From a virus (Duplodnaviria; Caudoviricetes): DNA of 64,000 nt. Positions within the stretch are counted from its first letter, which is position 1. Each line of letters begins with the position of its first letter. Location: the IMG/VR virus record IMGVR_UViG_3300050821_004020, positions 1 through 64,000 of that record; one strand, written 5' to 3'. Below are positions 14,464-60,302 of the stretch, piece by piece. The notes under the pieces were generated by a model. The model was given only the letters and a program-made list of their open reading frames with translations, was not told the DNA's origin and ran no database searches. Both the position numbers and the translations under genes were made by a program.

Positions 14464-15267
14464 TTACGATTTTCTCCACCTATTGCTCTGTCGAAGAATC
14501 TTCGCGGCGTATTCTTCCTGTCGTTTTTTATTTTCTTCTACAGGCAAAATAGCGAAGGCACCTTGTTTAGCTTCGAATTCTAAGAGCCTTTTGGCACCCC
14601 ACGTCTTTTCTTTTTTGAGTGCTTTTTGTGCTGCGTCTAGTCGAGACCAATCCTTCAAGAATATGAATCGCTTCTTTGGTATGTCGGGCGTAACTATGAG
14701 CCGCTCTCCGTATTTCGGTTTGACAATTTCGTACTTTGTGGTTCCAAACTCGTTAAAAAATCGTTTTCTGCTGACTCTTTTACCATCTAACCACCACGTT
14801 GAACCGTCTGGCTGTGCATCTTCTACTTGTAACCAATTTGCAGCTAGATAAGTATTTCCAGTATGGCCTACTTCGCGGTCGGCATAGGTGATAGCCGAAT
14901 CAAAATTAGCAGTCTTGAAGAGCAGTCGCGTACTGTGAGCTAAAAGACTGCTCGTAGCCCATAGATGGCCGGGAATCCCGACCATGCGAACCAATTCAAT
15001 CGGCTCAAAACCCGCTGCTCTCATTCTTTTTTGGACTGATATAGAACGAGGAACACCCCAAACAGTGCACCCCTCGTCGTGCCCGAAACATAATTGCGCC
15101 GTTCGTACCGCCCCCAAATAGTGGTGTTGAAGAAGTTCATTCGCTTTTTTCAAAGAAATAACTTCCACGCGGGGAGATTTTTGGAGCGAGAAGGTCGGAG
15201 TCGAACCGCCGTCACCGATTGGAATCGGTTGTTTTACCGTTAAACTATTCCCGCATAGCTCGCTCAT
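14464..15267 (-). CDS. mom: Mom-like adenine-modifying enzyme (GNAT fold)
   Basis: HHYL, IELVRM, TSSLL, ITYAD...GHTGNTYLAANW motifs typical of the Mom family; AGGAG RBS. Confidence 0.8.
   Translation of the reverse strand: MSELCGNSLTVKQPIPIGDGGSTPTFSLQKSPRVEVISLKKANELLQHHYLGAVRTAQLCFGHDEGCTVWGVPRSISVQKRMRAAGFEPIELVRMVGIPGHLWATSSLLAHSTRLLFKTANFDSAITYADREVGHTGNTYLAANWLQVEDAQPDGSTWWLDGKRVSRKRFFNEFGTTKYEIVKPKYGERLIVTPDIPKKRFIFLKDWSRLDAAQKALKKEKTWGAKRLLEFEAKQGAFAILPVEENKKRQEEYAAKILRQSNRWRKS
15182..15254 (-). ncRNA. tRNA-Gly(TCC)-like cloverleaf embedded in the mom 5' coding region
   Basis: Acceptor GCGGGAA/TTCTCGC, T discriminator, CCA; D stem GTTT/AAAC; ACCGA-TTCCAA-TCGGT; GGCGG-TTCGACT-CCG(A)CC. 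Confidence 0.75.
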
Positions 15268-52368: not shown

Positions 52369-52442
52369 GTGAGCCTGATGTAGCGGGAGCATGGCAGCCT
52401 GTGACGCTGTCTGGCTGGGTTCGAATCCCAGGGCGCACCCCA
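52369..52442 (+). tRNA. trnH: tRNA-His(GTG)
   Basis: Cloverleaf, CT-GTG-AC loop, C discriminator, CCA. Confidence 0.8.
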
Positions 52443-52636
52443 ATTCTTGGCCTGGCCGGACGGCCAAAGAGTCACCATGTCAGAGGATGCTGACCGGTTG
52501 TTGCTATTAGTTGAAGCGGCAGAGAAGATAGATAATAATCTGAGCGTGCTTCCCGTAGCGATTCAACTGTTGTATGATGAGCAGTACAAGATGTTGATTC
52601 AAGAAATTGCCAAGAAGGCAAAGAATTAAAGTTTTC

Positions 52637-52711
52637 GCCGCTCTAGCTCATTGGCAGAGCGCCGGCCTGAAAAACCGGGCGTACGTAGTTCGATTCTACG
52701 GTGCGGCGCCA
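52637..52711 (+). tRNA. trnF: tRNA-Phe(GAA)
   Basis: Cloverleaf, CT-GAA-AA, CCA. Confidence 0.9.
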
Positions 52712-52719
52712 AGATTAAT

Positions 52720-52806
52720 CGCCTGCTGATGGAATTGGCAGACATGCCGGATTCAAAATCCGGTGCCGTAAAACGCGTCAGGGTTCGAGTCCCTGGTGGG
52801 CGACCA
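52720..52806 (+). tRNA. trnL: tRNA-Leu(CAA)
   Basis: Long variable arm, TT-CAA-AA, CCA. Confidence 0.88.
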
Positions 52807-52812
52807 AAGTTT

Positions 52813-52942
52813 GATCTTCCGATCACGGGCAGCCACCGTGTGAGACGTCCACTAAGGGCGAGGCTGGTTAAGTAAGGGGCCCCTGAACAATCAGAGGCTA
52901 GCCCTCGGGCGATCCAGCTGGGATGCGCTGGTGAGGAAGACC
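52813..52942 (+). ncRNA. Unassigned structured RNA candidate
   Basis: TCTTCC/GGAAGA closing stem with three internal hairpins, located between two tRNAs. Confidence 0.45.
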
Positions 52943-52949
52943 GAATTTC

Positions 52950-53041
52950 TGTCGGGTACGACGGGATCGTGGCAGCGACTTATAATCGCTTCTGGCCCTG
53001 ATTAGGCTTGCTAGATGGTTCGATTCCATCCTCGACAACCA
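52950..53041 (+). tRNA. trnI: tRNA-Ile(TAT) with long variable arm
   Basis: TGTCGGG/CTCGACA acceptor, AGCGA-CTTATAA-TCGCT, variable region of about 23 nt, GATGG-TTCGATT-CCATC, CCA. Confidence 0.75.
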
Positions 53042-53045
53042 GTTT

Positions 53046-53128
53046 GGGCTTGTGGCGAAACAGGCAAACGCGGCGGACTTAAAACCCGCTCCGAAAGGAT
53101 GTCGGTTCGACCCCGACCTTGCCCACCA
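53046..53128 (+). tRNA. trnL: tRNA-Leu(TAA)
   Basis: CT-TAA-AA, variable arm, CCA. Confidence 0.88.
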
Positions 53129-53138
53129 AAGTTTCAAT

Positions 53139-53215
53139 GCGCTGCGATTTCGAGCGGCAGAATACCTCCCTCTTAAGGAGGCTTGGTCTCAGTTCAAGTC
53201 TGAGGCGGCGCACCA
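53139..53215 (+). tRNA. trnK: tRNA-Lys(CTT)
   Basis: CCTCC-CTCTTAA-GGAGG, CCA. Confidence 0.85.
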
Positions 53216-53220
53216 AATTT

Positions 53221-53296
53221 GGGTTCGTAGCTTAATTGGCAGAGCCTCCGTCTTTTAAACGGAACTGTGTAGGATCATTGCCTACCGGACCCACCA
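53221..53296 (+). tRNA. trnK: tRNA-Lys(TTT)
   Basis: CT-TTT-AA loop; atypical T loop; CCA. Confidence 0.8.
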
Positions 53297-53305
53297 AATT
53301 TATGT

Positions 53306-53395
53306 GGAAGTGCGGCGAAGACGGCGGGTCGTGCTTGTCTGTAAAACAAGATGCCCTTGCGGCACTAGCTGGTTCGAATCCAGCCGCTTCCACCA
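53306..53395 (+). tRNA. trnY: tRNA-Tyr(GTA)
   Basis: CT-GTA-AA, long variable arm, CCA. Confidence 0.88.
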
Positions 53396-53398
53396 TTT

Positions 53399-53474
53399 TA
53401 GTCTACTGGCGCAACAGCAGCGCAGTCTCTTGATAGGAGAAAGGTTCCTAGTGCAAATCTAGGGTGGACTACCA
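53399..53474 (+). tRNA. trnI: tRNA-Ile(GAT)
   Basis: TCTC-TTGATAG-GAGA, CCA; atypical T loop. Confidence 0.75.
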
Positions 53475-53486
53475 ATTTTACACCGT

Positions 53487-53562
53487 GGGGCTGTAGCTCA
53501 TTCAGGAGAGCGCATCGCTTGCACCGATGAGGCGTCCGGAGCAAAGCCGGATAGCTCCACCA
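53487..53562 (+). tRNA. trnA: tRNA-Ala(TGC)
   Basis: GGGGCTG acceptor with G3:U70, CT-TGC-AC, CCA. Confidence 0.88.
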
Positions 53563-53568
53563 ATTTCT

Positions 53569-53646
53569 GTTCCCGACTAGCAAACTGGTCGTATGCATCT
53601 CGCTTACACCGAGACAGGGAGTGTTCGATTCACTCGTTGGGAACCA
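53569..53646 (+). tRNA. trnV: tRNA-Val(TAC)
   Basis: CTCG-CTTACAC-CGAG, CCA. Confidence 0.8.
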
Positions 53647-53647
53647 C

Positions 53648-53723
53648 GGGGTGTTCGTATATCGGAACATTACGCGGCGCTACGAACGCCGAAAGCAGAG
53701 TCCAATTCTCTGACGCCCCTCCA
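53648..53723 (+). tRNA. trnR: tRNA-Arg(ACG)
   Basis: GGCG-CTACGAA-CGCC, CCA. Confidence 0.85.
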
Positions 53724-53791
53724 ATTTTCGTGTGTCACTGTAAACTATCGGCCTGTAGGTGAGCATAGGCGTCCGAGCACGAATACATTTT

Positions 53792-53866
53792 GGCCCTGTC
53801 GTTCAGCGCACAGGACTCTGGTCTTCGAAACCAGCAACGTCGGTTGGAATCCGACTGGGGCCTCCA
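53792..53866 (+). tRNA. trnR: tRNA-Arg(TCG)
   Basis: CTGGT-CTTCGAA-ACCAG, CCA. Confidence 0.85.
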
Positions 53867-53964
53867 AATTTACCGGGATTACAACCGGGTAGCGAACGTT
53901 TTCGGACGTAAACCGAATGGCTGGTGCTTTGCCGTTAGCCGCATCCTTTAAAAAGGAGCGACTG

Positions 53965-54342
53965 ATGATTAAAGAAACACAACTGGGTATGCCATTTGGA
54001 ACGGCGTGCCATCAACTAAGAAAGGAAATTCTTTTTGAGTTGGTAAGAGAAGTAAAAAGAAATTTTTGTTTTAGGTGCGGCAAACAAATTGAGCTTAGTC
54101 GAGATTTTTCGATTGATCATAAAGAGCCTTGGTTACACAGTTTTGAACCAAAAGTTTTGTTTTTCTCTTTGACGAATATTGCCTTTAGCCACAGGCTATG
54201 CAATACGAAGGCCCGTCGAATTAGAAGAAAGTATTCGCCCAAAGAAGCGATACGAGTTGAGCGAGAGCAGAAAGCCGCATACATGAGGAAAATGTATACG
54301 ACCGAGCGCCGCCAATTAAAGTATCGAGCTACTGGGCACTGA
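53965..54342 (+). CDS. HNH endonuclease within the tRNA cluster
   Basis: AAAGGAG RBS; CFRCG...SIDHKEPW...NIAFSHRLCN. Confidence 0.8.
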   Translation: MIKETQLGMPFGTACHQLRKEILFELVREVKRNFCFRCGKQIELSRDFSIDHKEPWLHSFEPKVLFFSLTNIAFSHRLCNTKARRIRRKYSPKEAIRVEREQKAAYMRKMYTTERRQLKYRATGH

Positions 54343-54349
54343 ATTCAGT

Positions 54350-54425
54350 TTCGCTCTGGTCTAACTGGCAGGACACTTCACTGTTAATGAAGAGGGTCTC
54401 CGTTCGAATCGGAGGGGCGGAGCCA
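54350..54425 (+). tRNA. trnN: tRNA-Asn(GTT)
   Basis: CTTCA-CTGTTAA-TGAAG, G discriminator, CCA. Confidence 0.88.
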
Positions 54426-54432
54426 ATTTCGA

Positions 54433-54506
54433 GCAGTGATGATCTAGTGGTATGATGACGCACTTGTAATGCGTACGCCGGGGTCCGATTCCCTGTCGCT
54501 GCTCCA
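54433..54506 (+). tRNA. trnT: tRNA-Thr(TGT)
   Basis: ACGCA-CTTGTAA-TGCGT, CCA. Confidence 0.85.
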
Positions 54507-54507
54507 A

Positions 54508-54581
54508 GCACTGTTGATCTAGTGGTATGATGCCGCTTTCGTAAAGCGGACGCCGGGGTCCGATTCCCTGACGGTGCTCCA
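54508..54581 (+). tRNA. trnT: tRNA-Thr(CGT)
   Basis: CCGCT-TTCGTAA-AGCGG, CCA; near-duplicate of the preceding tRNA. Confidence 0.85.
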
Positions 54582-54586
54582 GTTTT

Positions 54587-54663
54587 GAGGTGGTCGCGTA
54601 GCGGCCTATCGCACTCCACTGTCTATGGAGTTTTCGTGGGTTCGAATCCCATCCGCCTCGCCA
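54587..54663 (+). tRNA. trnD: tRNA-Asp(GTC)
   Basis: TCCA-CTGTCTA-TGGA, G discriminator, CCA. Confidence 0.85.
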
Positions 54664-54671
54664 TTTTTCGA

Positions 54672-54745
54672 GCACTCGTAGTTTAGTGGTAGAACACGCC
54701 CTTGGTAAGGGCGGGGTTAGGGTCCGATTCCCTGCAGGTGCTCCA
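54672..54745 (+). tRNA. trnT: tRNA-Thr(GGT)
   Basis: CGCCC-TTGGTAA-GGGCG, CCA. Confidence 0.85.
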
Positions 54746-54747
54746 GT

Positions 54748-54821
54748 GCCCATGTAGTCTAGTGGTAGAACGCAGCCCTCTCACGGCTGTAGCGTCGGTT
54801 CGATTCCGGCCACGGGTACCA
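54748..54821 (+). tRNA. trnE: tRNA-Glu(CTC)
   Basis: CAGCC-CTCTCAC-GGCTG, CCA. Confidence 0.85.
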
Positions 54822-54828
54822 ATTCTGT

Positions 54829-54904
54829 GGCGATGTCATCTAGTGGCCTAGGATGCTTCCCTTTCAAGGAAGTCACGCGGGTTCGAGTCCCGCCGACGCT
54901 ACCA
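54829..54904 (+). tRNA. trnE: tRNA-Glu(TTC)
   Basis: CTTCC-CTTTCAA-GGAAG, CCA. Confidence 0.88.
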
Positions 54905-55055
54905 TATTCTGAAAGTTGTCTGTTGGATACCCCACCGTACGGTGCAGTACATTAACATCGGTGTTAAAAAGACTTGCAAAGGCCAAAATGGATTGGTATA
55001 AGGATTCAGCAGTTGAGCAGTTAAATCCCATCCCTACCAAAGAGGAGAGGCCAAC

Positions 55056-55271
55056 GTGAAGAATCCGGTCCAGCAAGCAGGTATGAAAGAGTTGAAGCTG
55101 TCCTTTGATGCTCGTATTGATGATTTGCATTTGCAGGTCGGAGATTTCGTCAAAGTAGCGGATCAAGTATATAAATTTGTTGGTCGTGAATTGGGCGCTA
55201 GGGATCAATTCGGGAAACTCATTCCAGGTTTGAACCATAAGTATTACGATGTTCTCGAGCCAATCAATTAA
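55056..55271 (+). CDS. Hypothetical small protein
   Basis: GAGGAG RBS, GTG start. Confidence 0.55.
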   Translation: MKNPVQQAGMKELKLSFDARIDDLHLQVGDFVKVADQVYKFVGRELGARDQFGKLIPGLNHKYYDVLEPIN

Positions 55272-55280
55272 GTTCATTAT

Positions 55281-55365
55281 GCCCCGTTGGCGAAACTGGG
55301 AAACGCGCAGAGCTTAGACCTCTGTGCCTTCGGGCTTGGAGGTTCGACTCCTCTATGGGGCACCA
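55281..55365 (+). tRNA. trnL: tRNA-Leu(TAG)
   Basis: CAGAG-CTTAGAC-CTCTG, variable arm, CCA. Confidence 0.88.
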
Positions 55366-55367
55366 TT

Positions 55368-55733
55368 TTGTACGTACATCGGTTGGGCGTGCCGCAATCA
55401 CGCCCGACCACTCTATTGCGGAGAGAAAGGGTGAGAGAAGGGAAGGCTTATGAGCGTGTTCGTGGCGCTCACAAACGATTGGTTGTGAACCGTTGGAAAA
55501 GAAGAAAGGGCTGCGTTGATTGCGGCTACAAAGCCAATTACGACGCGCTAGAGTTAGATCACCTCTTCGGAAAGAAAGGCAATTATCGTACTGTTGCTTC
55601 TCTGATGTACGCGAGCTGGAGAGTGATCAAAGAAGAGATTGTAAAATGCGAAGTTGTTTGTGCGAACTGCCATGCAATTCGAACTCGGTTAAGAGAGAAA
55701 ATTTCATTGCGGGCACGGCTGGTGCCGGGCTAA
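55368..55733 (+). CDS. HNH endonuclease within the tRNA cluster (start approximate)
   Basis: GCVDCG...ALELDH...K...EEI.KCEVVCANCH..RT. Confidence 0.8.
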   Translation: MYVHRLGVPQSRPTTLLRRERVREGKAYERVRGAHKRLVVNRWKRRKGCVDCGYKANYDALELDHLFGKKGNYRTVASLMYASWRVIKEEIVKCEVVCANCHAIRTRLREKISLRARLVPG

Positions 55734-55780
55734 GCCTCATAAACTTTGGCGTCATGATTCGATTTCATGGCCCGCAACCA
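55708..55780 (+). tRNA. Degenerate tRNA with CAT anticodon (Met or Ile2)
   Basis: TGCGGGC/GCCCGCA-A-CCA acceptor, CTCATAA loop; weak anticodon stem, A53 in T arm. Confidence 0.6.
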
Positions 55781-55794
55781 TTTTTAGGAGTCGC

Positions 55795-55995
55795 ATGGAT
55801 CTTAAGTCGATACCATATTCAATAGCAAAGGTTGCCCGTGATCAAATGGCAGCCGGCACAAAGGCGGCAAAAGGTGGGGATGATGATAAAGCCGCGCCAG
55901 AGCCTGCTAAGAAACAGGAAAATCCTGCGGATAAGTCAACTGATGCTGTTAGTGGTCTAGTTAAGACTGTCGCAAGCCATTTTATGCCGAGTTAA
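55795..55995 (+). CDS. Hypothetical small protein
   Basis: AGGAG RBS. Confidence 0.55.
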   Translation: MDLKSIPYSIAKVARDQMAAGTKAAKGGDDDKAAPEPAKKQENPADKSTDAVSGLVKTVASHFMPS

Positions 55996-56039
55996 AACTC
56001 TAGGGCCCGTTTCCAGGCCCCACAGTTAGGCTAACTCCG

Positions 56040-56480
56040 TTACTTTCGTTTTCGGTCGAGGACGCTGGCAGTTTCCTTGTCAACTACGTACAGATGGCCG
56101 GTCTTGCCGTTTTCACCATTCTGTCCGACGATCAAGCTGAATTTTTCAGTCAGCCCGAGCTTGTGAAACTGATAGCGAATTCTTGCTGTCATTTGTCCGG
56201 CGTCCAACACATTGTTCCACGGGTCAACGGTTGGGATGATGTCGATGTCCACGGCTTCAAAACTGCCGAGACCGGCATTGAGCTTTTCCATTAATGCGGA
56301 CCAGAAGGGGAGCCCCAAAATGAAAGCTTCCCGTCCAGCGCGAACTGGCGACGGAACATCTGTCCTCTTGACGATTTTGATTGCTGGTCCCCGGTCAGTT
56401 GTGTAATCCGGGCCGTATGTTGCGTTGATTTTTGTTGCAGTCGCTGACATTCTTTTCTCCTTTTGTGTTGCGGTTGCCAT
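56040..56480 (-). CDS. Hypothetical protein, antisense to the tRNA cluster
   Basis: AAAGGAAG RBS, 146 aa, protein-like composition. Confidence 0.6.
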   Translation of the reverse strand: MATATQKEKRMSATATKINATYGPDYTTDRGPAIKIVKRTDVPSPVRAGREAFILGLPFWSALMEKLNAGLGSFEAVDIDIIPTVDPWNNVLDAGQMTARIRYQFHKLGLTEKFSLIVGQNGENGKTGHLYVVDKETASVLDRKRK

Positions 56481-56761
56481 TTTGGTTTCTTCCTTTCAGT
56501 GGCTGAGTTGATCTAGTTTATCTGAGTGTTAGAGGAAGCCCTGGGCTTTTTAGACTGCACTCTGGATTAAACGTCCACGGTACTAATTCTGGAGTTTAAC
56601 CCAAAGCGGTTCAATACTCCAAACACTGTACGTCGGTTCATAGTACCTCTAGTCCTTAGTTTCTGGCTTTGTACGCTTTCGTACCGGCCATGTGTGTACC
56701 GTACAGAGTATTAGATGCCAAATCTGTGCTAAACAGCACACTTTTGGAATAAAGTTTTCGA

Positions 56762-56835
56762 GCGATGTTGGTATAGTGGTAGAACGACACCTTGCCAAGG
56801 TGTAGGCGCGGTTTCGATTACCGCACGTCGCTCCA
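56762..56835 (+). tRNA. trnG: tRNA-Gly(GCC)
   Basis: ACACC-TTGCCAA-GGTGT, T discriminator, CCA. Confidence 0.9.
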
Positions 56836-56838
56836 GTT

Positions 56839-56951
56839 TGTCCGGTAGCTCAGATGGTTAGAGCGCGATCAGCAAGCCCGCTCATTCAGGTCATTCCTGA
56901 ATTGCAAGGCCCAAGTGGTCGAGGTCACGGGTTCGAATCCCGTCCGGCAAA
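56839..56951 (+). ncRNA. tRNA-like RNA with 46-nt insertion in the anticodon loop; no encoded CCA
   Basis: TAGCTCAGATGGTTAGAGC D arm, CGATC/GGTCG anticodon stem, AGGTC variable loop, ACGGG-TTCGAAT-CCCGT. Confidence 0.7.
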
Positions 56952-56963
56952 ATTCGGTGGTCT

Positions 56964-57221
56964 ATGACATACGAAGCCCTCGTGATCACGTTGGGGTTTG
57001 TAGTGGACTTGATCGCATTGTATTTTTTGGTCGGTATCTGGCGTGATGACAGGCTCATGCGGATAGCGGCAGAAGAATCCCTTAAGGCTCAGCTTGAGTA
57101 TTTGGGCTTGCGCCGTAAATGGTACGAGCAGCGCTCCGCAGCCAAGAGGAAGAGCGATGTGGGAAGACCAGGAACAGAAGCAGCTGGAACACAGGATGGC
57201 GATAGTGCGAACGCTGTGTAA
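56964..57221 (+). CDS. Small membrane-anchored protein
   Basis: N-terminal TM, coiled coil. Confidence 0.5.
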   Translation: MTYEALVITLGFVVDLIALYFLVGIWRDDRLMRIAAEESLKAQLEYLGLRRKWYEQRSAAKRKSDVGRPGTEAAGTQDGDSANAV

Positions 57222-57285
57222 CATTGCCGGCGTCATTATAAGCCTCTTCTACGTTCTCTGGCAAATGAAGTTGATACGATTTTAA

Positions 57286-57359
57286 GCGGTGTTGATGTAA
57301 CGGTAGCATCGCAGTTTTCCAAACTGCTCGTCTCGGTTCGAATCCGTGACGCCGCTCCA
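57286..57359 (+). tRNA. trnG: tRNA-Gly(TCC)
   Basis: GCAGT-TTTCCAA-ACTGC, T discriminator, CCA. Confidence 0.88.
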
Positions 57360-57461
57360 GTTTAATCCTCGAAGAGAGGTACGATGCACGAAAGAATAGA
57401 GCGGCTTAGAAATCACGCACATTTTTTGGTCGGATATCGTCAAGAATTAGAGGAGGTACTT

Positions 57462-57689
57462 ATGGCATTCGCAGACAGCATTGCAAAGTTGCAAGCGGAC
57501 GTAGCAACACTTATCGCAGAGAACGGTCCCGCAGCGGTAACGGCGGCAGTAACGGCAGCCGTGGCAGCCAAGGACGCGTCAGACGCAGCGGCAGTTGACG
57601 CAGTGGACGCAACGGTAGCAGCAGCTCTGCCGGCAGCACCAGCCCCGGCGGCTCCAGCAGCACCGGCCCCAGCAACACCAGCGGCGTAA
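57462..57689 (+). CDS. Ala/Pro-rich small protein
   Basis: GGAGGT RBS; low complexity. Confidence 0.65.
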   Translation: MAFADSIAKLQADVATLIAENGPAAVTAAVTAAVAAKDASDAAAVDAVDATVAAALPAAPAPAAPAAPAPATPAA

Positions 57690-57744
57690 GGTTTTTCTAG
57701 AATACCCGGAGATCCGTGGCGGGTTATCCACGGTCAAAGTTTAT

Positions 57745-57819
57745 ATGAGAGTCGTCTAGAGGCTAGGACGGCGGACTCCAAACCCGCCTACGGTGGTTCG
57801 ACTCCATCCTCTCATGCCA
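57745..57819 (+). tRNA. trnW: tRNA-Trp(CCA)
   Basis: CT-CCA-AA loop, G discriminator, CCA. Confidence 0.85.
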
Positions 57820-57921
57820 ATTTAGTGGGGGGCTTATGAAGACTCATAAGTTTTTCACAGCGGTTCTGTATTTTGGTTTGACGATGATGTTGCTCGTGAG
57901 CCGGTATAAGCGATTTAAATT

Positions 57922-58218
57922 ATGACACTACCCTCTTGGTTGAGCTGGCTGACCGACAATTCCTGGATGAACAATCCAGACGTGCTTGCGCAGTTCGGTC
58001 ATGCGGGGATCCCTTATGGCGCCCTGTTGACGATGGATAAGTTTCATTCGCATTTGTTTTACCCAATCGGTCTAGGCGTAATAGCGTACGCCGCAGTTAA
58101 AGAATTTTGGTATGACGCGAACTATGAAACGCCCAAGCAGAGCTTCAAGGACAATATGACGGATTTCAGTTTTTATTGCCTTGGAGTCGGCCTGGCGTTC
58201 CTAGTTCACAATCTCTAA
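57922..58218 (+). CDS. Small membrane protein
   Basis: Hydrophobic segments; H..H.G...KE.W.D...D pattern. Confidence 0.55.
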   Translation: MTLPSWLSWLTDNSWMNNPDVLAQFGHAGIPYGALLTMDKFHSHLFYPIGLGVIAYAAVKEFWYDANYETPKQSFKDNMTDFSFYCLGVGLAFLVHNL

Positions 58219-58226
58219 GTTTCAGT

Positions 58227-58301
58227 GGATCTATCTTTCAATGGATAGGAAGTCCGCCTTCTAAGCGGATAATCCAGGTTCGAGTCCTGGTGGGTCTACC
58301 A
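58227..58301 (+). tRNA. trnR: tRNA-Arg(TCT)
   Basis: TCCGC-CTTCTAA-GCGGA, CCA. Confidence 0.88.
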
Positions 58302-58305
58302 ATTT

Positions 58306-58381
58306 GGCTCTGTCGTTCAAATGGACAGGACGCGAATTTCCTAAATTCGTCATCGCGGTTCGACTCCGCGTGGGGCCTCCA
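58306..58381 (+). tRNA. trnR: tRNA-Arg(CCT)
   Basis: CGAAT-TTCCTAA-ATTCG, CCA. Confidence 0.85.
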
Positions 58382-58469
58382 GTTCTAGCTTAACGCCGAG
58401 TAGGGGACCAATTGGGCGGCGCGTGACTTGCATGGTGCTCTACCACAGAGTGCAAGTGGGTTCAGCCCG

Positions 58470-58811
58470 ATGCACATTCGTGTTCCGCGTTGGCAGTTGT
58501 TGGCTATTCCTTCGTTGGCGTTCGCAGTGGGCTTCACGATGAACGCGTTCGTTATGGCCATGAATAACGGTCAGATGCCTGTGTTGTTCCCGGGCGGAGA
58601 CCAGTCTGGGTATACTCAAGACACCATTCATTGCGCGATGACGATGGCAACGCACTTTAGATTTCTCGCGGATTGGATCAACATTCGCGGAGTTGGTATC
58701 GCCAGTCCCGGCGATTTCTTGGAGTGGTTCTCGGATCAAACAACTTGGCCTGGAATTTGGGCTTGGTTCGCGCTGATAGTCAATGACCACATCAAAAAGG
58801 AAAGGCAATGA
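58470..58811 (+). CDS. DUF5317-like membrane protein
   Basis: G..MN.FV.A.N.GQMPV...FLADWI......SPGD. Confidence 0.65.
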   Translation: MHIRVPRWQLLAIPSLAFAVGFTMNAFVMAMNNGQMPVLFPGGDQSGYTQDTIHCAMTMATHFRFLADWINIRGVGIASPGDFLEWFSDQTTWPGIWAWFALIVNDHIKKERQ

Positions 58812-59248
58812 AAGGTGTAATTTTAGCTGGACTGCTCGCCTTGGTTATGGTAGGCTGTAACATCGTTACGAAGTCAAACGACTACGGCGTATACAATATT
58901 GGGGTTTGTGGTGATGAAGCATTCATGGCGTCGAACGTAGACGTTGAAAAGGACACCTTCACCATTCTCGCGTCAGAGATGGCGCCAGGTCAAGCAAAGG
59001 CGCAAAGCAATAAGCCGATAGTATTTAAGTTTTCCAAGGTCGTAGACGGTAAGCGCGTTTACATTCTGGTCATAAATGGCCATGAAGACGAGATCGCGGT
59101 AACCGCGCAGAACGGCGTAGTATCAGGAACGTTCTCCGTGAACAATAAAGAGCTGGCGGTCATTCATGGCGCCAAGGGTTCTTTGGATAAGATTGATGAA
59201 GTTGGTCAAGCAGAGGCGCAGTCTTGCTACGACCGAAACAATAGGTAA
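58808..59248 (+). CDS. Putative lipoprotein
   Basis: MK..ILAGLLALVMVGC lipobox. Confidence 0.65.
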   Translation: MKGVILAGLLALVMVGCNIVTKSNDYGVYNIGVCGDEAFMASNVDVEKDTFTILASEMAPGQAKAQSNKPIVFKFSKVVDGKRVYILVINGHEDEIAVTAQNGVVSGTFSVNNKELAVIHGAKGSLDKIDEVGQAEAQSCYDRNNR

Positions 59249-59252
59249 GGAT

Positions 59253-59532
59253 TTAGGTGGACTGGATCATCGCGGGCGCAAGCCTGAGGAACTTCAGGAC
59301 ATCACTATACACAGCACCGTGGAAGTTGCGGGCCGGGTAACCGGACGGGTAAGGCCATCTTGCGGAGAATAGCCAGTCTAATCTACGCACATTCAAGGGT
59401 GGGCACTCCATGCTGGATGCAATCTCAAATAGGGCTGGAGCGCGTATAGCGTTATGATAGCCGGGTTGAGAGCTTAGACGGATGATGGTCGGGTCGCAAG
59501 GCTTACTAAATCCTGGGTATAGGTTCACCTAA
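59253..59532 (+). ncRNA. rnpB: RNase P RNA (compact, type-A-like)
   Basis: P1 TTAGGTGGAC/GTTCACCTAA, P2 GATCATC/GATGGTC, P3 with GCAA loop, GAGGAACTTCAGGAC (CR-I), P4 CAGGA/TCCTG, P15 TCTCAA/TTGAGA, TTAGACGGAT, ACTAAATCCTGGGTATA (CR-V). Confidence 0.82.
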
Positions 59533-59541
59533 TAATTTTAA

Positions 59542-59627
59542 GGAACGGTGCCGAAACGGTAGCCGGACTGGTTTGCTAAACCAGCGAGTGAAAGCTCGTG
59601 GAGGTTCGAATCCTCCTCGTTCCGCCA
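59542..59627 (+). tRNA. trnS: tRNA-Ser(GCT)
   Basis: CTGGT-TTGCTAA-ACCAG, variable arm, G discriminator, CCA. Confidence 0.9.
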
Positions 59628-59688
59628 TTTGAATTTACGGGAACCCCGAGATAGCTACCCGGGGCCGTGAACCCGGTTGCAAACGGGC

Positions 59689-59766
59689 GACGATGTAGCT
59701 CAGTGGCAGAGCACAACCACTTAAGTGTGATTGAGGCCGTCGGTTCGAATCCGACTATCGTCTACA
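59689..59766 (+). ncRNA. tRNA-like RNA with aberrant 20-nt anticodon arm, no CCA
   Basis: GACGATG/TATCGTC acceptor, canonical D and T arms, CAACCACTTAAGTGTGATTG arm. Confidence 0.6.
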
Positions 59767-59772
59767 AATTTT

Positions 59773-59859
59773 GGATTAATGCGGTCCATGGGGGCCAGCG
59801 GTCTTGAAAACCGTGCCGGGTGTAAGCCCGAGTGGGTTCGATTCCTACTTAATCCGCCA
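59773..59859 (+). tRNA. trnS: tRNA-Ser(TGA)
   Basis: GCGGT-CTTGAAA-ACCGT, variable arm, CCA. Confidence 0.88.
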
Positions 59860-59901
59860 GCCGGTCTCTTACGGGTAAAGCCGGGAGCCGGCGCCAAGTT
59901 T

Positions 59902-59977
59902 CTCTGAGTGGCCAAGTGTTAAAGGCAGAGATCTGCAAAATCTCAAATCGTGGGTTAAAATCCCACCTCGGAGTCCA
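59902..59977 (+). tRNA. trnC: tRNA-Cys(GCA)
   Basis: GAGAT-CTGCAAA-ATCTC, T discriminator, CCA. Confidence 0.88.
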
Positions 59978-59978
59978 T

Positions 59979-60054
59979 TGAGATGTCGTCCAACCCGGCA
60001 GGACAACGGTCTTTGAAACCGTGAATTCTGGTTCGAATCCAGACGCCTCATCCA
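59979..60054 (+). tRNA. trnQ: tRNA-Gln(TTG)
   Basis: ACGGT-CTTTGAA-ACCGT, CCA. Confidence 0.88.
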
Positions 60055-60061
60055 AATTTAT

Positions 60062-60136
60062 TGCGATGTCATTCAATCGGTAGGATGACGCTCTCTGAAA
60101 GCGTTCATAGTGGTTCGAGTCCACTCGCCGCAACCA
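60062..60136 (+). tRNA. trnQ: tRNA-Gln(CTG)
   Basis: ACGCT-CTCTGAA-AGCGT, CCA. Confidence 0.88.
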
Positions 60137-60143
60137 ATTTAAT

Positions 60144-60222
60144 CGGAAAATAGGGGAGCCTGGCTTATCCCGCTCGCTTTGGAAGCGAGAGCACGTTGGT
60201 TCGAATCCAACTTTTCCGACCA
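60144..60222 (+). tRNA. trnP: tRNA-Pro(TGG)
   Basis: CGG start, CTCGC-TTTGGAA-GCGAG, CCA. Confidence 0.88.
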
Positions 60223-60223
60223 T

Positions 60224-60302
60224 CGAGAAATAGGAGAGTCTGGCTTATTCCGCCCGGTTCGGAACCGGGAGCACGTTGGTTCAAATCCAACTTTCTCGAC
60301 CA
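60224..60302 (+). tRNA. trnP: tRNA-Pro(CGG)
   Basis: CCCGG-TTCGGAA-CCGGG, CCA; tandem paralog of the preceding tRNA. Confidence 0.88.

Follow-up and report, generated by a model that had tools for sequence, protein, structure and literature searches.

We analysed a 64,000-nt stretch of viral DNA (Duplodnaviria; Caudoviricetes), positions 1 to 64,000 of IMG/VR record IMGVR_UViG_3300050821_004020 (hereafter the window), in which a 280-nt gene at 59253-59532 on the + strand, running from the 5' strand to the 3' strand of helix P1, is on sequence grounds best described as a variant of class A RNase P RNA. The gene is located inside a run of 33 same-strand transfer RNA (tRNA) genes predicted by ARAGORN at 52369-60302 (+), which are its presumed substrates. 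It begins 4 nt after an open reading frame (ORF) of unknown function and ends 9 nt before tRNA-Ser(GCU) (59542-59627, +; ARAGORN), with which it is likely co-transcribed; a simple consensus scan of the + strand from 58300 to 59700 found neither a sigma-70-like promoter nor an intrinsic terminator, a result that does not in itself prove co-transcription. A first-pass annotation, made from the letters of the window, had proposed that a phage-encoded, divergent and reduced RNase P RNA sits here within a cluster of about 34 tRNAs. The placement inside the cluster is correct, as are 33 genes on the + strand, while a thirty-fourth was called by ARAGORN only as a doubtful element on the - strand. That the gene is phage-borne agrees with the phage-type DNA polymerase, helicase and primase encoded in the window (PHROG matches) and with the viral contexts of its homologues, and no deposited phage has a DNA polymerase more than 37.5% identical to the one in the window.

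A permissive cmscan of 59150-59560 returned a single match, to RF00010 (RNaseP_bact_a), which is also the best match within the Rfam RNase P clan. It spans 59254-59535 (+) and model positions 1-367, full-length and untruncated, at 95.7 bits (E 4.3e-30), so that the Infernal comparison suggested by the first-pass annotation gave a significant result. Because this score is below the gathering cut-off of 100 bits, RNase P is not listed by Rfam at gathering thresholds over the whole 64-kb window, the curated rule being missed by ~4 bits, although the homology itself is beyond doubt. Only 6 of the 18 family members tested reach the curated score, and most copies are therefore missed by standard phage annotation. 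Helices P1, P2, P3, P5 and P15 and the P4 pseudoknot with its bulged U are all formed in the window, and conserved regions CR-I, CR-IV and CR-V are all present and aligned by cmscan, with substitutions in CR-I and CR-V. The class A module is also present in the form of P16/P17, the pairing between the P17 loop and J5/7 (P6), and an L15 with GGU. A complete specificity domain (the CR-II/CR-III junctions J11/12 and J12/13, P13 and P14) and the P18 hairpin are lacking, although P18 is also missing in some bacteria and is a weak criterion. It is because the score is 4 bits short and P13, P14, P18 and the usual junction motifs are lacking that we class the gene as a variant and not as a plain member of the family. 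Two ORFs that overlap the RNA, at 59166-59372 (+) and 59253-59528 (-), were rejected as genes: the paired columns covary, and the tblastn matches of these ORFs in relatives arise because the RNA itself is conserved at the nucleotide level.

The fold was tested on an alignment of 15 relatives from viral contigs (mean column identity 59%), to which the percentages of paired cells given below refer; 10 of the 15 rows had been fetched with a loose P4 pattern that itself required the CR-I GAGGAA and the bulged U. The structure mapped here pairs 89.2% of cells in these sequences, compared to 69.9% after shuffling (none of 500 shuffles gets as high) and to 32-39% with the register slid, a control against which the structure is favoured by having been derived from the same sequences as were counted, and 59 of its 82 pairs change on both sides. 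RNAalifold, which was run without a supplied structure, recovers P2, P3, P7-P12 and P15-P17, and of the 52 pairs that it predicts 37 are compensatory. P2, P4, P8-P11 and P15 are paired in 100% of cells, whereas the low values for P5 (50%, stemming from a one-column shift) and P12 (36%) reflect MAFFT register shifts and variable hairpin length rather than broken helices. Invariant in the 15 sequences are the J5/15 GCAA, most of the AAAUAGG, the L15 CGGGU and most of CR-IV, motifs independently of which the alignment was gathered, as well as the CR-I GAGGAA and the bulged U, which the search pattern fixed for 10 of the 15 rows. The fold is under selection, and the covariation among phage homologues that had been named as a check is present. 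Thermodynamic folding alone is uninformative here, the minimum free energy fold of the single sequence not giving the RNase P fold.

Checked base by base, the 280 nt fold as the RNase P core described in the first-pass annotation, whose outer helices P1 and P2 and hairpin P3 were placed exactly. P1 (59253-59262/59523-59532) forms 10 of 10 pairs in the window and is paired in 74.5% of cells in the relatives, many of which have an internal mismatch. Inside it, P2 (59265-59271/59484-59490) has seven pairs, of which five change on both sides and which RNAalifold finds too, and is followed by the 5-bp P3 hairpin CGGGC-GCAA-GCCUG (59273-59286; placed by cmscan, 88% paired, 4/5 pairs covarying), which is much shorter than in those relatives that have a long P3. 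CR-I (GAGGAACUUCAGGAC, 59286-59300) and CR-V (ACUAAAUCCUGGGUA, 59505-59519), both located by cmscan and by the mapped structure, are joined by P4 (59291-59299/59511-59518); the CAGGA/UCCUG pairing first seen between them is right and extends to eight pairs with a bulged U at 59294. CR-V reads ACUAAA in the window, where the usual form is ACAGAA, a rare version found in 2 of the 55 viral or metagenome homologues described below. P5 (59300-59303/59416-59419) forms all four pairs, with CAU/AUG in the window versus CAC/GUG in relatives when compared by eye. The P6 pseudoknot, newly identified here, pairs CUAUAC in J5/7 (59305-59310) with GUAUAG in the P17 loop (59444-59449); it is paired in 93% of cells, all six pairs change on both sides, and its counterparts in relatives include CUCAAC/GUUGAG and CUAGAC/GUCUAG. 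P5, P7, P8, P10-P12, P16 and P17 are likewise assigned beyond the first-pass annotation.

The remainder of the catalytic domain is equally recognisable. The segment 59419-59433 holds the J5/15 GCAA, the 5' strand of P15 (59423-59426) and the J15/16 AAAUAGG, and the 3' strand of P15 was placed at 59468-59471 by comparison with relatives. All four pairs of P15 covary; of the six-pair helix TCTCAA/TTGAGA initially proposed, the UCUC/GAGA part stands, while the extra AA/UU is not kept in relatives. Within 59434-59471 are P16 (59434-59437/59458-59461, 85% paired), P17 (59440-59442/59450-59452, 95% paired) and the L15 CGGGU (59462-59466); in class A RNAs the GGU of L15 is the binding site of the tRNA 3' CCA. 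CR-IV (AGACGGAUG, 59476-59490, located by cmscan) runs into the 3' strand of P2. No P18 lies between P15 and CR-IV, 24 model positions being matched by 0 nt. A P19-like hairpin with a GCAA loop (59491-59504) is optional in the family, occurring in 8 of the 15 relatives with varied loops (GNRA in some) and being paired in 75% of cells. All of the smaller motifs reported previously (J5/15 GCAA, AAAUAGG, L15 GGU, CR-IV and P19 with its GCAA loop) are thus present, and P18 is missing as reported. Two of the relatives, L153 (6080-6100) and L173, have a small hairpin at the P18 site (alignment A2, columns 289-305), which in L153 reads CGC-GAAA-GCG with a GNRA loop; nothing is found there in the window and the other 12 relatives, so that the presence of P18 varies within the viral subfamily.

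The specificity domain (59312-59415) is reduced, with 44 unaligned nt where the model has 90 positions (cmscan), in line with its earlier description as short. It consists of a P7-P11 cruciform and a short P12: P7 (59312-59316/59411-59415, 97% paired), P8 (59317-59331), P9 (59332-59346, the CCGG-GUAA-CCGG hairpin noticed at first pass), P10 (59348-59349/59408-59409), P11 (59355-59359/59398-59402) and P12 (59361-59389), the base of which is found in relatives by RNAalifold. P7-P11 show many compensatory changes among the 15 relatives, and RNAalifold agrees with them. P13 and P14 are missing, as are both junction motifs next to P12, in place of which there is 1 nt 5' of the helix and a conserved CAUUCRAG 3' of it (CAUUCAAG in the window, 59390-59397). 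The UUCRA inside CAUUCRAG has the sequence of a T-loop and may form one. The GYRAAA-type J12/13 motif occurs in 112 of 117 cellular controls (described below) versus 22 of 49 viral copies. The RNA is minimised in a relative sense, in that its 280 nt keep P7-P12 and the class A P6/P16/P17 module and are without P13, P14 and P18 only; the initial reading of a divergent, reduced RNase P RNA is supported by cmscan, covariation and RNAalifold alike. At the P10/P11 junction, positions 59354 and 59403 vary together without standard pairing (alignment A2; G with G/U in 10 of 15 sequences, C with A in 5 of 15) and may represent a conserved non-canonical contact.

Homologues were collected by several searches. 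A search for the window's exact P4 strands yielded homologues from two viral contigs and four metagenome contigs, a pair of the metagenome ones being identical over the RNA; these contigs are otherwise very different (40-59% G+C), and tRNA genes adjoin all but L100, a 4.5-kb locus without a tRNA. The 15-mer GAGGAACTTCAGGAC alone matched more than 112 contigs, nearly all of them by chance and only L100 and L109 being real, and a 17-mer from CR-V gave one match, also by chance. The loose pattern, in which the universally conserved letters were fixed and four positions left free on each P4 strand, retrieved 50 viral contigs, many of 100-330 kb. All eight P4 pairs are kept in 52 of the 55 viral or metagenome homologues despite 31 sequence variants, compared to a chance expectation of ~2% for pairing at the four free pairs (simple arithmetic on random letters). 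As a cellular control, the same pattern was applied to one genome per prokaryote species and returned 118 rnpB loci, in which P4 hardly varies: just 5' of the bulged U, 113 of the 118 carry the dinucleotide AG, versus 12 of 49 viral copies, and the CU of the window occurs in only one (L224, see below). Measured against both sets, the earlier observation that P4 is altered on both strands and still pairs holds good. A search with a P8 signature, independent of P4 and of spacing, brought the window subfamily to 22 distinct sequences, and this signature is found in 0 of 117 cellular controls.

The association with tRNA genes extends across these homologues. A tRNA lies within 2 kb in 47 of the 55, at least five tRNAs are present in 43 of the 55 loci, and in every locus but one all the tRNAs are on the strand of the RNA, whereas 106 of the 118 cellular control loci are without a tRNA. 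Of 50 family members, 24 have the start of the next tRNA no more than 30 nt from CR-V, i.e., 0-15 nt past the end of P1. As for the array in the window, 32 of its 33 tRNAs encode the 3' CCA, and their elbows are ordinary (GG in the D-loop region in 32/33, TTCRA in 25/33).

The stretch is almost complete in one soil metagenome run, probably its source, and parts of it are present in two soil metatranscriptome runs filed under different studies. Each of the two RNA runs contains one contig that is identical to the window and confined to the gene, covering 59263-59486 (depth 34) and 59268-59516 (depth 29.8), respectively. Flank contigs in the first run have depths of 2.7-4.2, the gene being ~10 times deeper, and in the second run nothing else of 4 kb is covered apart from one divergent fragment; no contig covers the tRNAs or most of the flanks, and these uncovered parts carry no meaning. 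This tenfold difference points to a discrete and abundant RNA that accumulates as such in two metatranscriptomes, although the contigs give neither strand nor ends. The divergent fragment of the second run (run X4, record 22) matches 59317-59357, i.e., P8 and P9, with three differences and continues through a different P12 region into a relative's version of CAUUCAAG, so that relatives of the ribozyme RNA also occur in RNA libraries.

An RNA that is abundant relative to its flanks, whose P4 and CR-V depart from the consensus and whose specificity domain is reduced could also be a decoy or specificity switch, which would mainly sequester host RnpA or pre-tRNAs and so shut down or redirect host tRNA maturation, with catalysis secondary or lost. 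Conservation in the family, however, exceeds that of a protein-binding platform, since the J5/15 GCAA, most of the AAAUAGG, the L15 CGGGU and most of CR-IV are invariant, together with the GAGGAA of CR-I and the bulged U (both pattern-fixed in 10 rows). In addition, compensatory changes preserve both pseudoknots, P4 and P6, and the gene goes with arrays of tRNAs that encode CCA and have to be cut. We consider a decoy decidedly improbable.

The relationship between viral and cellular copies was assessed with a tree that combines the core sequences of 49 viral and 60 cellular copies (235 columns, many long branches). The clade to which the window belongs comprises 11 viral rows (SH-aLRT 98) and is nested in a larger group, apart from cellular rnpB, that consists of 33 viral rows and L224 (support 96); 33 of the 49 viral copies are thus in one supported branch set, and the viral/cellular label changes 8 times on the tree versus 36 in shuffles. 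The tree, as far as its sequences go, indicates clustering and not a dated origin. The gene belongs to a large family found mainly on viral contigs. L224 is a 19-kb contig (CAZOXV010000004.1) in a metagenome-assembled genome labelled Methanosarcinales archaeon; it carries a viral-type ribozyme with the CU version of P4 and 12 tRNAs in 8 kb, and looks like a phage contig mis-binned into an archaeal genome. In blastn searches against 50,697 deposited phage records, neither the RNA nor 12 kb of the window had a match, and the RNAs of two relatives had no phage match and hit only the Salmonella chromosome rnpB; no cultured phage carrying such an RNA was identified among these deposited records.

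These data bear on whether the gene is a decaying passenger, that is, a copy of host rnpB acquired along with tRNA genes, or a fragment of an attachment site, without function in the phage. Phages do capture host genes, some integrate into small-RNA genes, and the score is below the Rfam cut-off, all of which would fit. The gene is nevertheless full-length, 59 of its 82 pairs are compensatory, and its relatives show no random uncompensated decay; the majority of viral copies form the supported branch set apart from cellular rnpB, the P8 signature is absent from the cellular controls, and exact RNA contigs occur in two metatranscriptomes. Covariation, the viral clade and expression together strongly disfavour a passenger, to which we give hardly any credence, and an attachment-site fragment was rejected outright, the gene being full length and divergent.

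RNase P RNA normally works with the protein RnpA, and we searched for a phage version with a hidden Markov model built from five bacterial RnpA proteins (positive controls at 1e-41 or better). No rnpA was found in the six frames of the window (best E 6.9), as the first-pass annotation had reported, nor in 674 kb around the viral homologues (best E 0.65), and PF00825 has no match in four whole viral records carrying such an RNA, two of them complete, whereas it is found in 10 of 14 reference genomes used as a control. A search for a conserved neighbouring protein cofactor was negative as well, the proteins of the arrays being an HNH endonuclease, DUF5317 (membrane), a collagen-repeat protein and others of no known function. 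The use of host RnpA is suggested by two observations, namely this absence of a phage rnpA and the retained catalytic domain.

The same absence from the window, from the surroundings of the homologues and from the whole viral records would also be expected if the ribozyme worked without host RnpA, alone or with an unrecognised phage protein, giving host-independent 5' maturation; moreover, the viral RNAs form their own branch set, with a P4 freed from the cellular consensus, as might follow from changed partner constraints. Yet no conserved candidate protein adjoins the gene, bacterial-type RNAs need protein at physiological salt, and the RnpA-contacting regions of class A (P3, P4, CR-IV and CR-V) are retained, so that a ribozyme with a new partner or none seems unlikely to us, if somewhat less so than a decoy.

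Taken together, we regard it as probable, though well short of certain, that 59253-59532 is a functional phage-encoded class A RNase P RNA that matures the phage tRNA array, most likely with host RnpA. The gene would probably be transcribed with the array and yield a stable RNA of ~280 nt, predicted to fold into a class A catalytic domain (P1-P5, P15, P16/P17 and the P4 and P6 pseudoknots) with a cut-down specificity domain. This RNA would most likely bind host RnpA, the likeliest partner because no phage rnpA was found, and, acting in trans, would remove the 5' leaders from 33 closely packed, mostly CCA-encoding phage pre-tRNAs. In class A RNase P, the GGU of L15 pairs with CCA and a J5/15 adenosine favours U at position -1. 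Both elements are invariant in the subfamily, and the encoded CCA of 32 of the 33 tRNAs matches the retained GGU; U is found at -1 in 22 of the 33 array tRNAs, compared to 25% T in the region. In the phage RNA, the L15 GGU would accordingly be expected to dock the tRNA 3' CCA, and the J5/15 adenosine to read the frequent U at -1. Since the spacers measure only 1-10 nt in much of the array (19 of 32 are no longer than 10 nt), a single 5' cut would also release the upstream tRNA, and RNase P alone could dismantle the array. The ribozyme would probably generate its own 3' end too, by the cut at tRNA-Ser, whose gene begins 9 nt further downstream. An extra or host-independent capacity for tRNA maturation during infection could be what the phage gains.

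Several points weigh against a functional enzyme of this kind. The RF00010 score is just below the Rfam curated cut-off, the fold energy of the single sequence is ordinary (z -1.54), and the margin of the structure over slid registers is inflated by its derivation from the sequences counted. The core departs from the bacterial consensus in having CU for AG before the bulged U of P4 and ACUAAA for ACAGAA in CR-V. These departures touch positions that we take to be tied to metal binding in E. coli, where the G altered in CR-V presumably contributes to Mg2+ binding; they are compensated or recur in other family members. The two junctions that normally hold the tRNA elbow are unrecognisable, and substrate binding may be weakened or different. 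For the RNA libraries, in which the contigs lack strand and ends, DNA carry-over is possible in principle. Finally, the window represents 64 kb of the phage, and an rnpA-like or novel partner gene could lie elsewhere.

RNase P is, to our knowledge, regarded as a universal cellular enzyme. Aligned over its full length with RF00010, the class A family of E. coli M1 RNA (rnpB) and Thermotoga maritima P RNA, the phage RNA shares P1-P5, P7-P12, P15-P17, P4 with its bulged U, and P6, as well as CR-I, CR-IV, CR-V, the J5/15 GCAA and the L15 GGU. Unlike cellular class A RNAs, the phage RNA is virus-encoded within a tRNA array, measures 280 nt versus ~370, is without P13, P14 and P18, has P12 flanks of 1 nt and CAUUCRAG, carries CU with compensating partners in P4 in place of the AG of 113/118 cellular controls, and has ACUAAA in CR-V. 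Reduced RNase P RNAs are known elsewhere, in the form of the small RNAs of Mollicutes, the engineered 'Micro P' and type T of the Thermoproteaceae (RF02357). As we understand them, these likewise lose peripheral helices and part of the specificity domain and keep the catalytic core; however, they are the sole cellular enzyme or a laboratory construct, while the phage RNA is an extra, virus-borne copy, and it keeps P7-P12 and the P6/P16/P17 module.

The closest phage parallel that we found is with theta ribozymes, which resemble hepatitis delta virus (HDV) ribozymes, adjoin tRNA genes in gut phages and have been proposed to lessen dependence on host tRNA-processing enzymes (PMC10879173). Both are phage-encoded classes of catalytic RNA beside phage tRNA genes. 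Theta ribozymes are small, self-cleaving and proposed to act on tRNA 3' trailers, 5' processing being assigned to cellular RNase P (PMC10879173), whereas the RNA described here is an RNase P homologue that would cleave 5' leaders in trans. A 2024 review of RNase P (PMC11143913) and the theta ribozyme paper (PMC10879173) both treat tRNA 5' maturation as a host function and mention no virus-encoded RNase P RNA, and full-text literature searches, which left most subscription journals outside their reach, found no description of one. A ribozyme gene that viruses carry and maintain by selection extends the list of translation-related functions brought by phages. The family also supplies a series of naturally reduced RNase P RNAs in which P4 occurs in dozens of compensated versions, a ready mutational data set that informs on the active-site helix and on the minimum specificity domain needed, and it suggests compact ribozymes for processing synthetic tRNA arrays.

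A broader reading goes beyond the single gene: tailed phages may maintain an old, virus-specific RNase P lineage under constraints unlike those of any cellular RNase P, in which P4 is free to vary if paired, the elbow reader would be a single T-loop-like CAUUCRAG, the gene is fused to its substrates, and the enzyme is private to the phage, perhaps with a different protein partner or none. We put this forward tentatively and consider it rather unlikely as a whole. If it were true, a private enzyme might prefer the CCA-encoding, tightly spaced pre-tRNAs of the phage, and tRNA supply might persist through a shut-off of host RNase P or host tRNAs or an attack on them by defence systems.

Several further features of the tRNA array were recorded. 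At gathering thresholds, 28 tRNAs are recognised by Rfam on the + strand (52.3-60.3 kb), and there is a single weak match on the - strand. The latter is a lone tRNA-like element far from the array (15182-15254, -; 30.5 bits versus a cut-off of 29), to which ARAGORN assigns a two-base 'anticodon' and which is doubtful. A 92-nt tRNA-Ile(UAU) at 52950-53041 (+) is called by ARAGORN and not by Rfam, while a tRNA at 53487-53559 (+) is called by Rfam (46 bits) and not by ARAGORN, so that the true count of the array may be 34. The element at 59689-59763 (+), to which ARAGORN gives a four-base anticodon (UAAG; Rfam 51.6 bits), is the one tRNA of the array that does not encode CCA; its anticodon loop may measure 8 nt, and it would then be a candidate for a frameshift-reading or otherwise unusual tRNA. 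At 59773-59859 (+), Rfam reports tRNA-Sec (47.2 bits versus a cut-off of 47) and ARAGORN tRNA-Ser(UGA), the gene probably being an ordinary long-arm serine tRNA. Between tRNA genes, an ORF at 53917-54342 (+) encodes the HNH endonuclease (Pfam PF01844, E 2e-5), copies of which, 45-78% identical and sometimes several per locus, are found in the tRNA arrays of the related phages L149, L153, L159, L172 and L135; the likely identity is a homing endonuclease spreading through such arrays. A related tRNA array from a metagenome (L114:1212-1358, +) has adjacent near-threshold Rfam matches to abiF RNA (35.9 versus 37) and tmRNA (46.6 versus 47), and ARAGORN reads the tmRNA-like match as a tRNA with a two-base anticodon.

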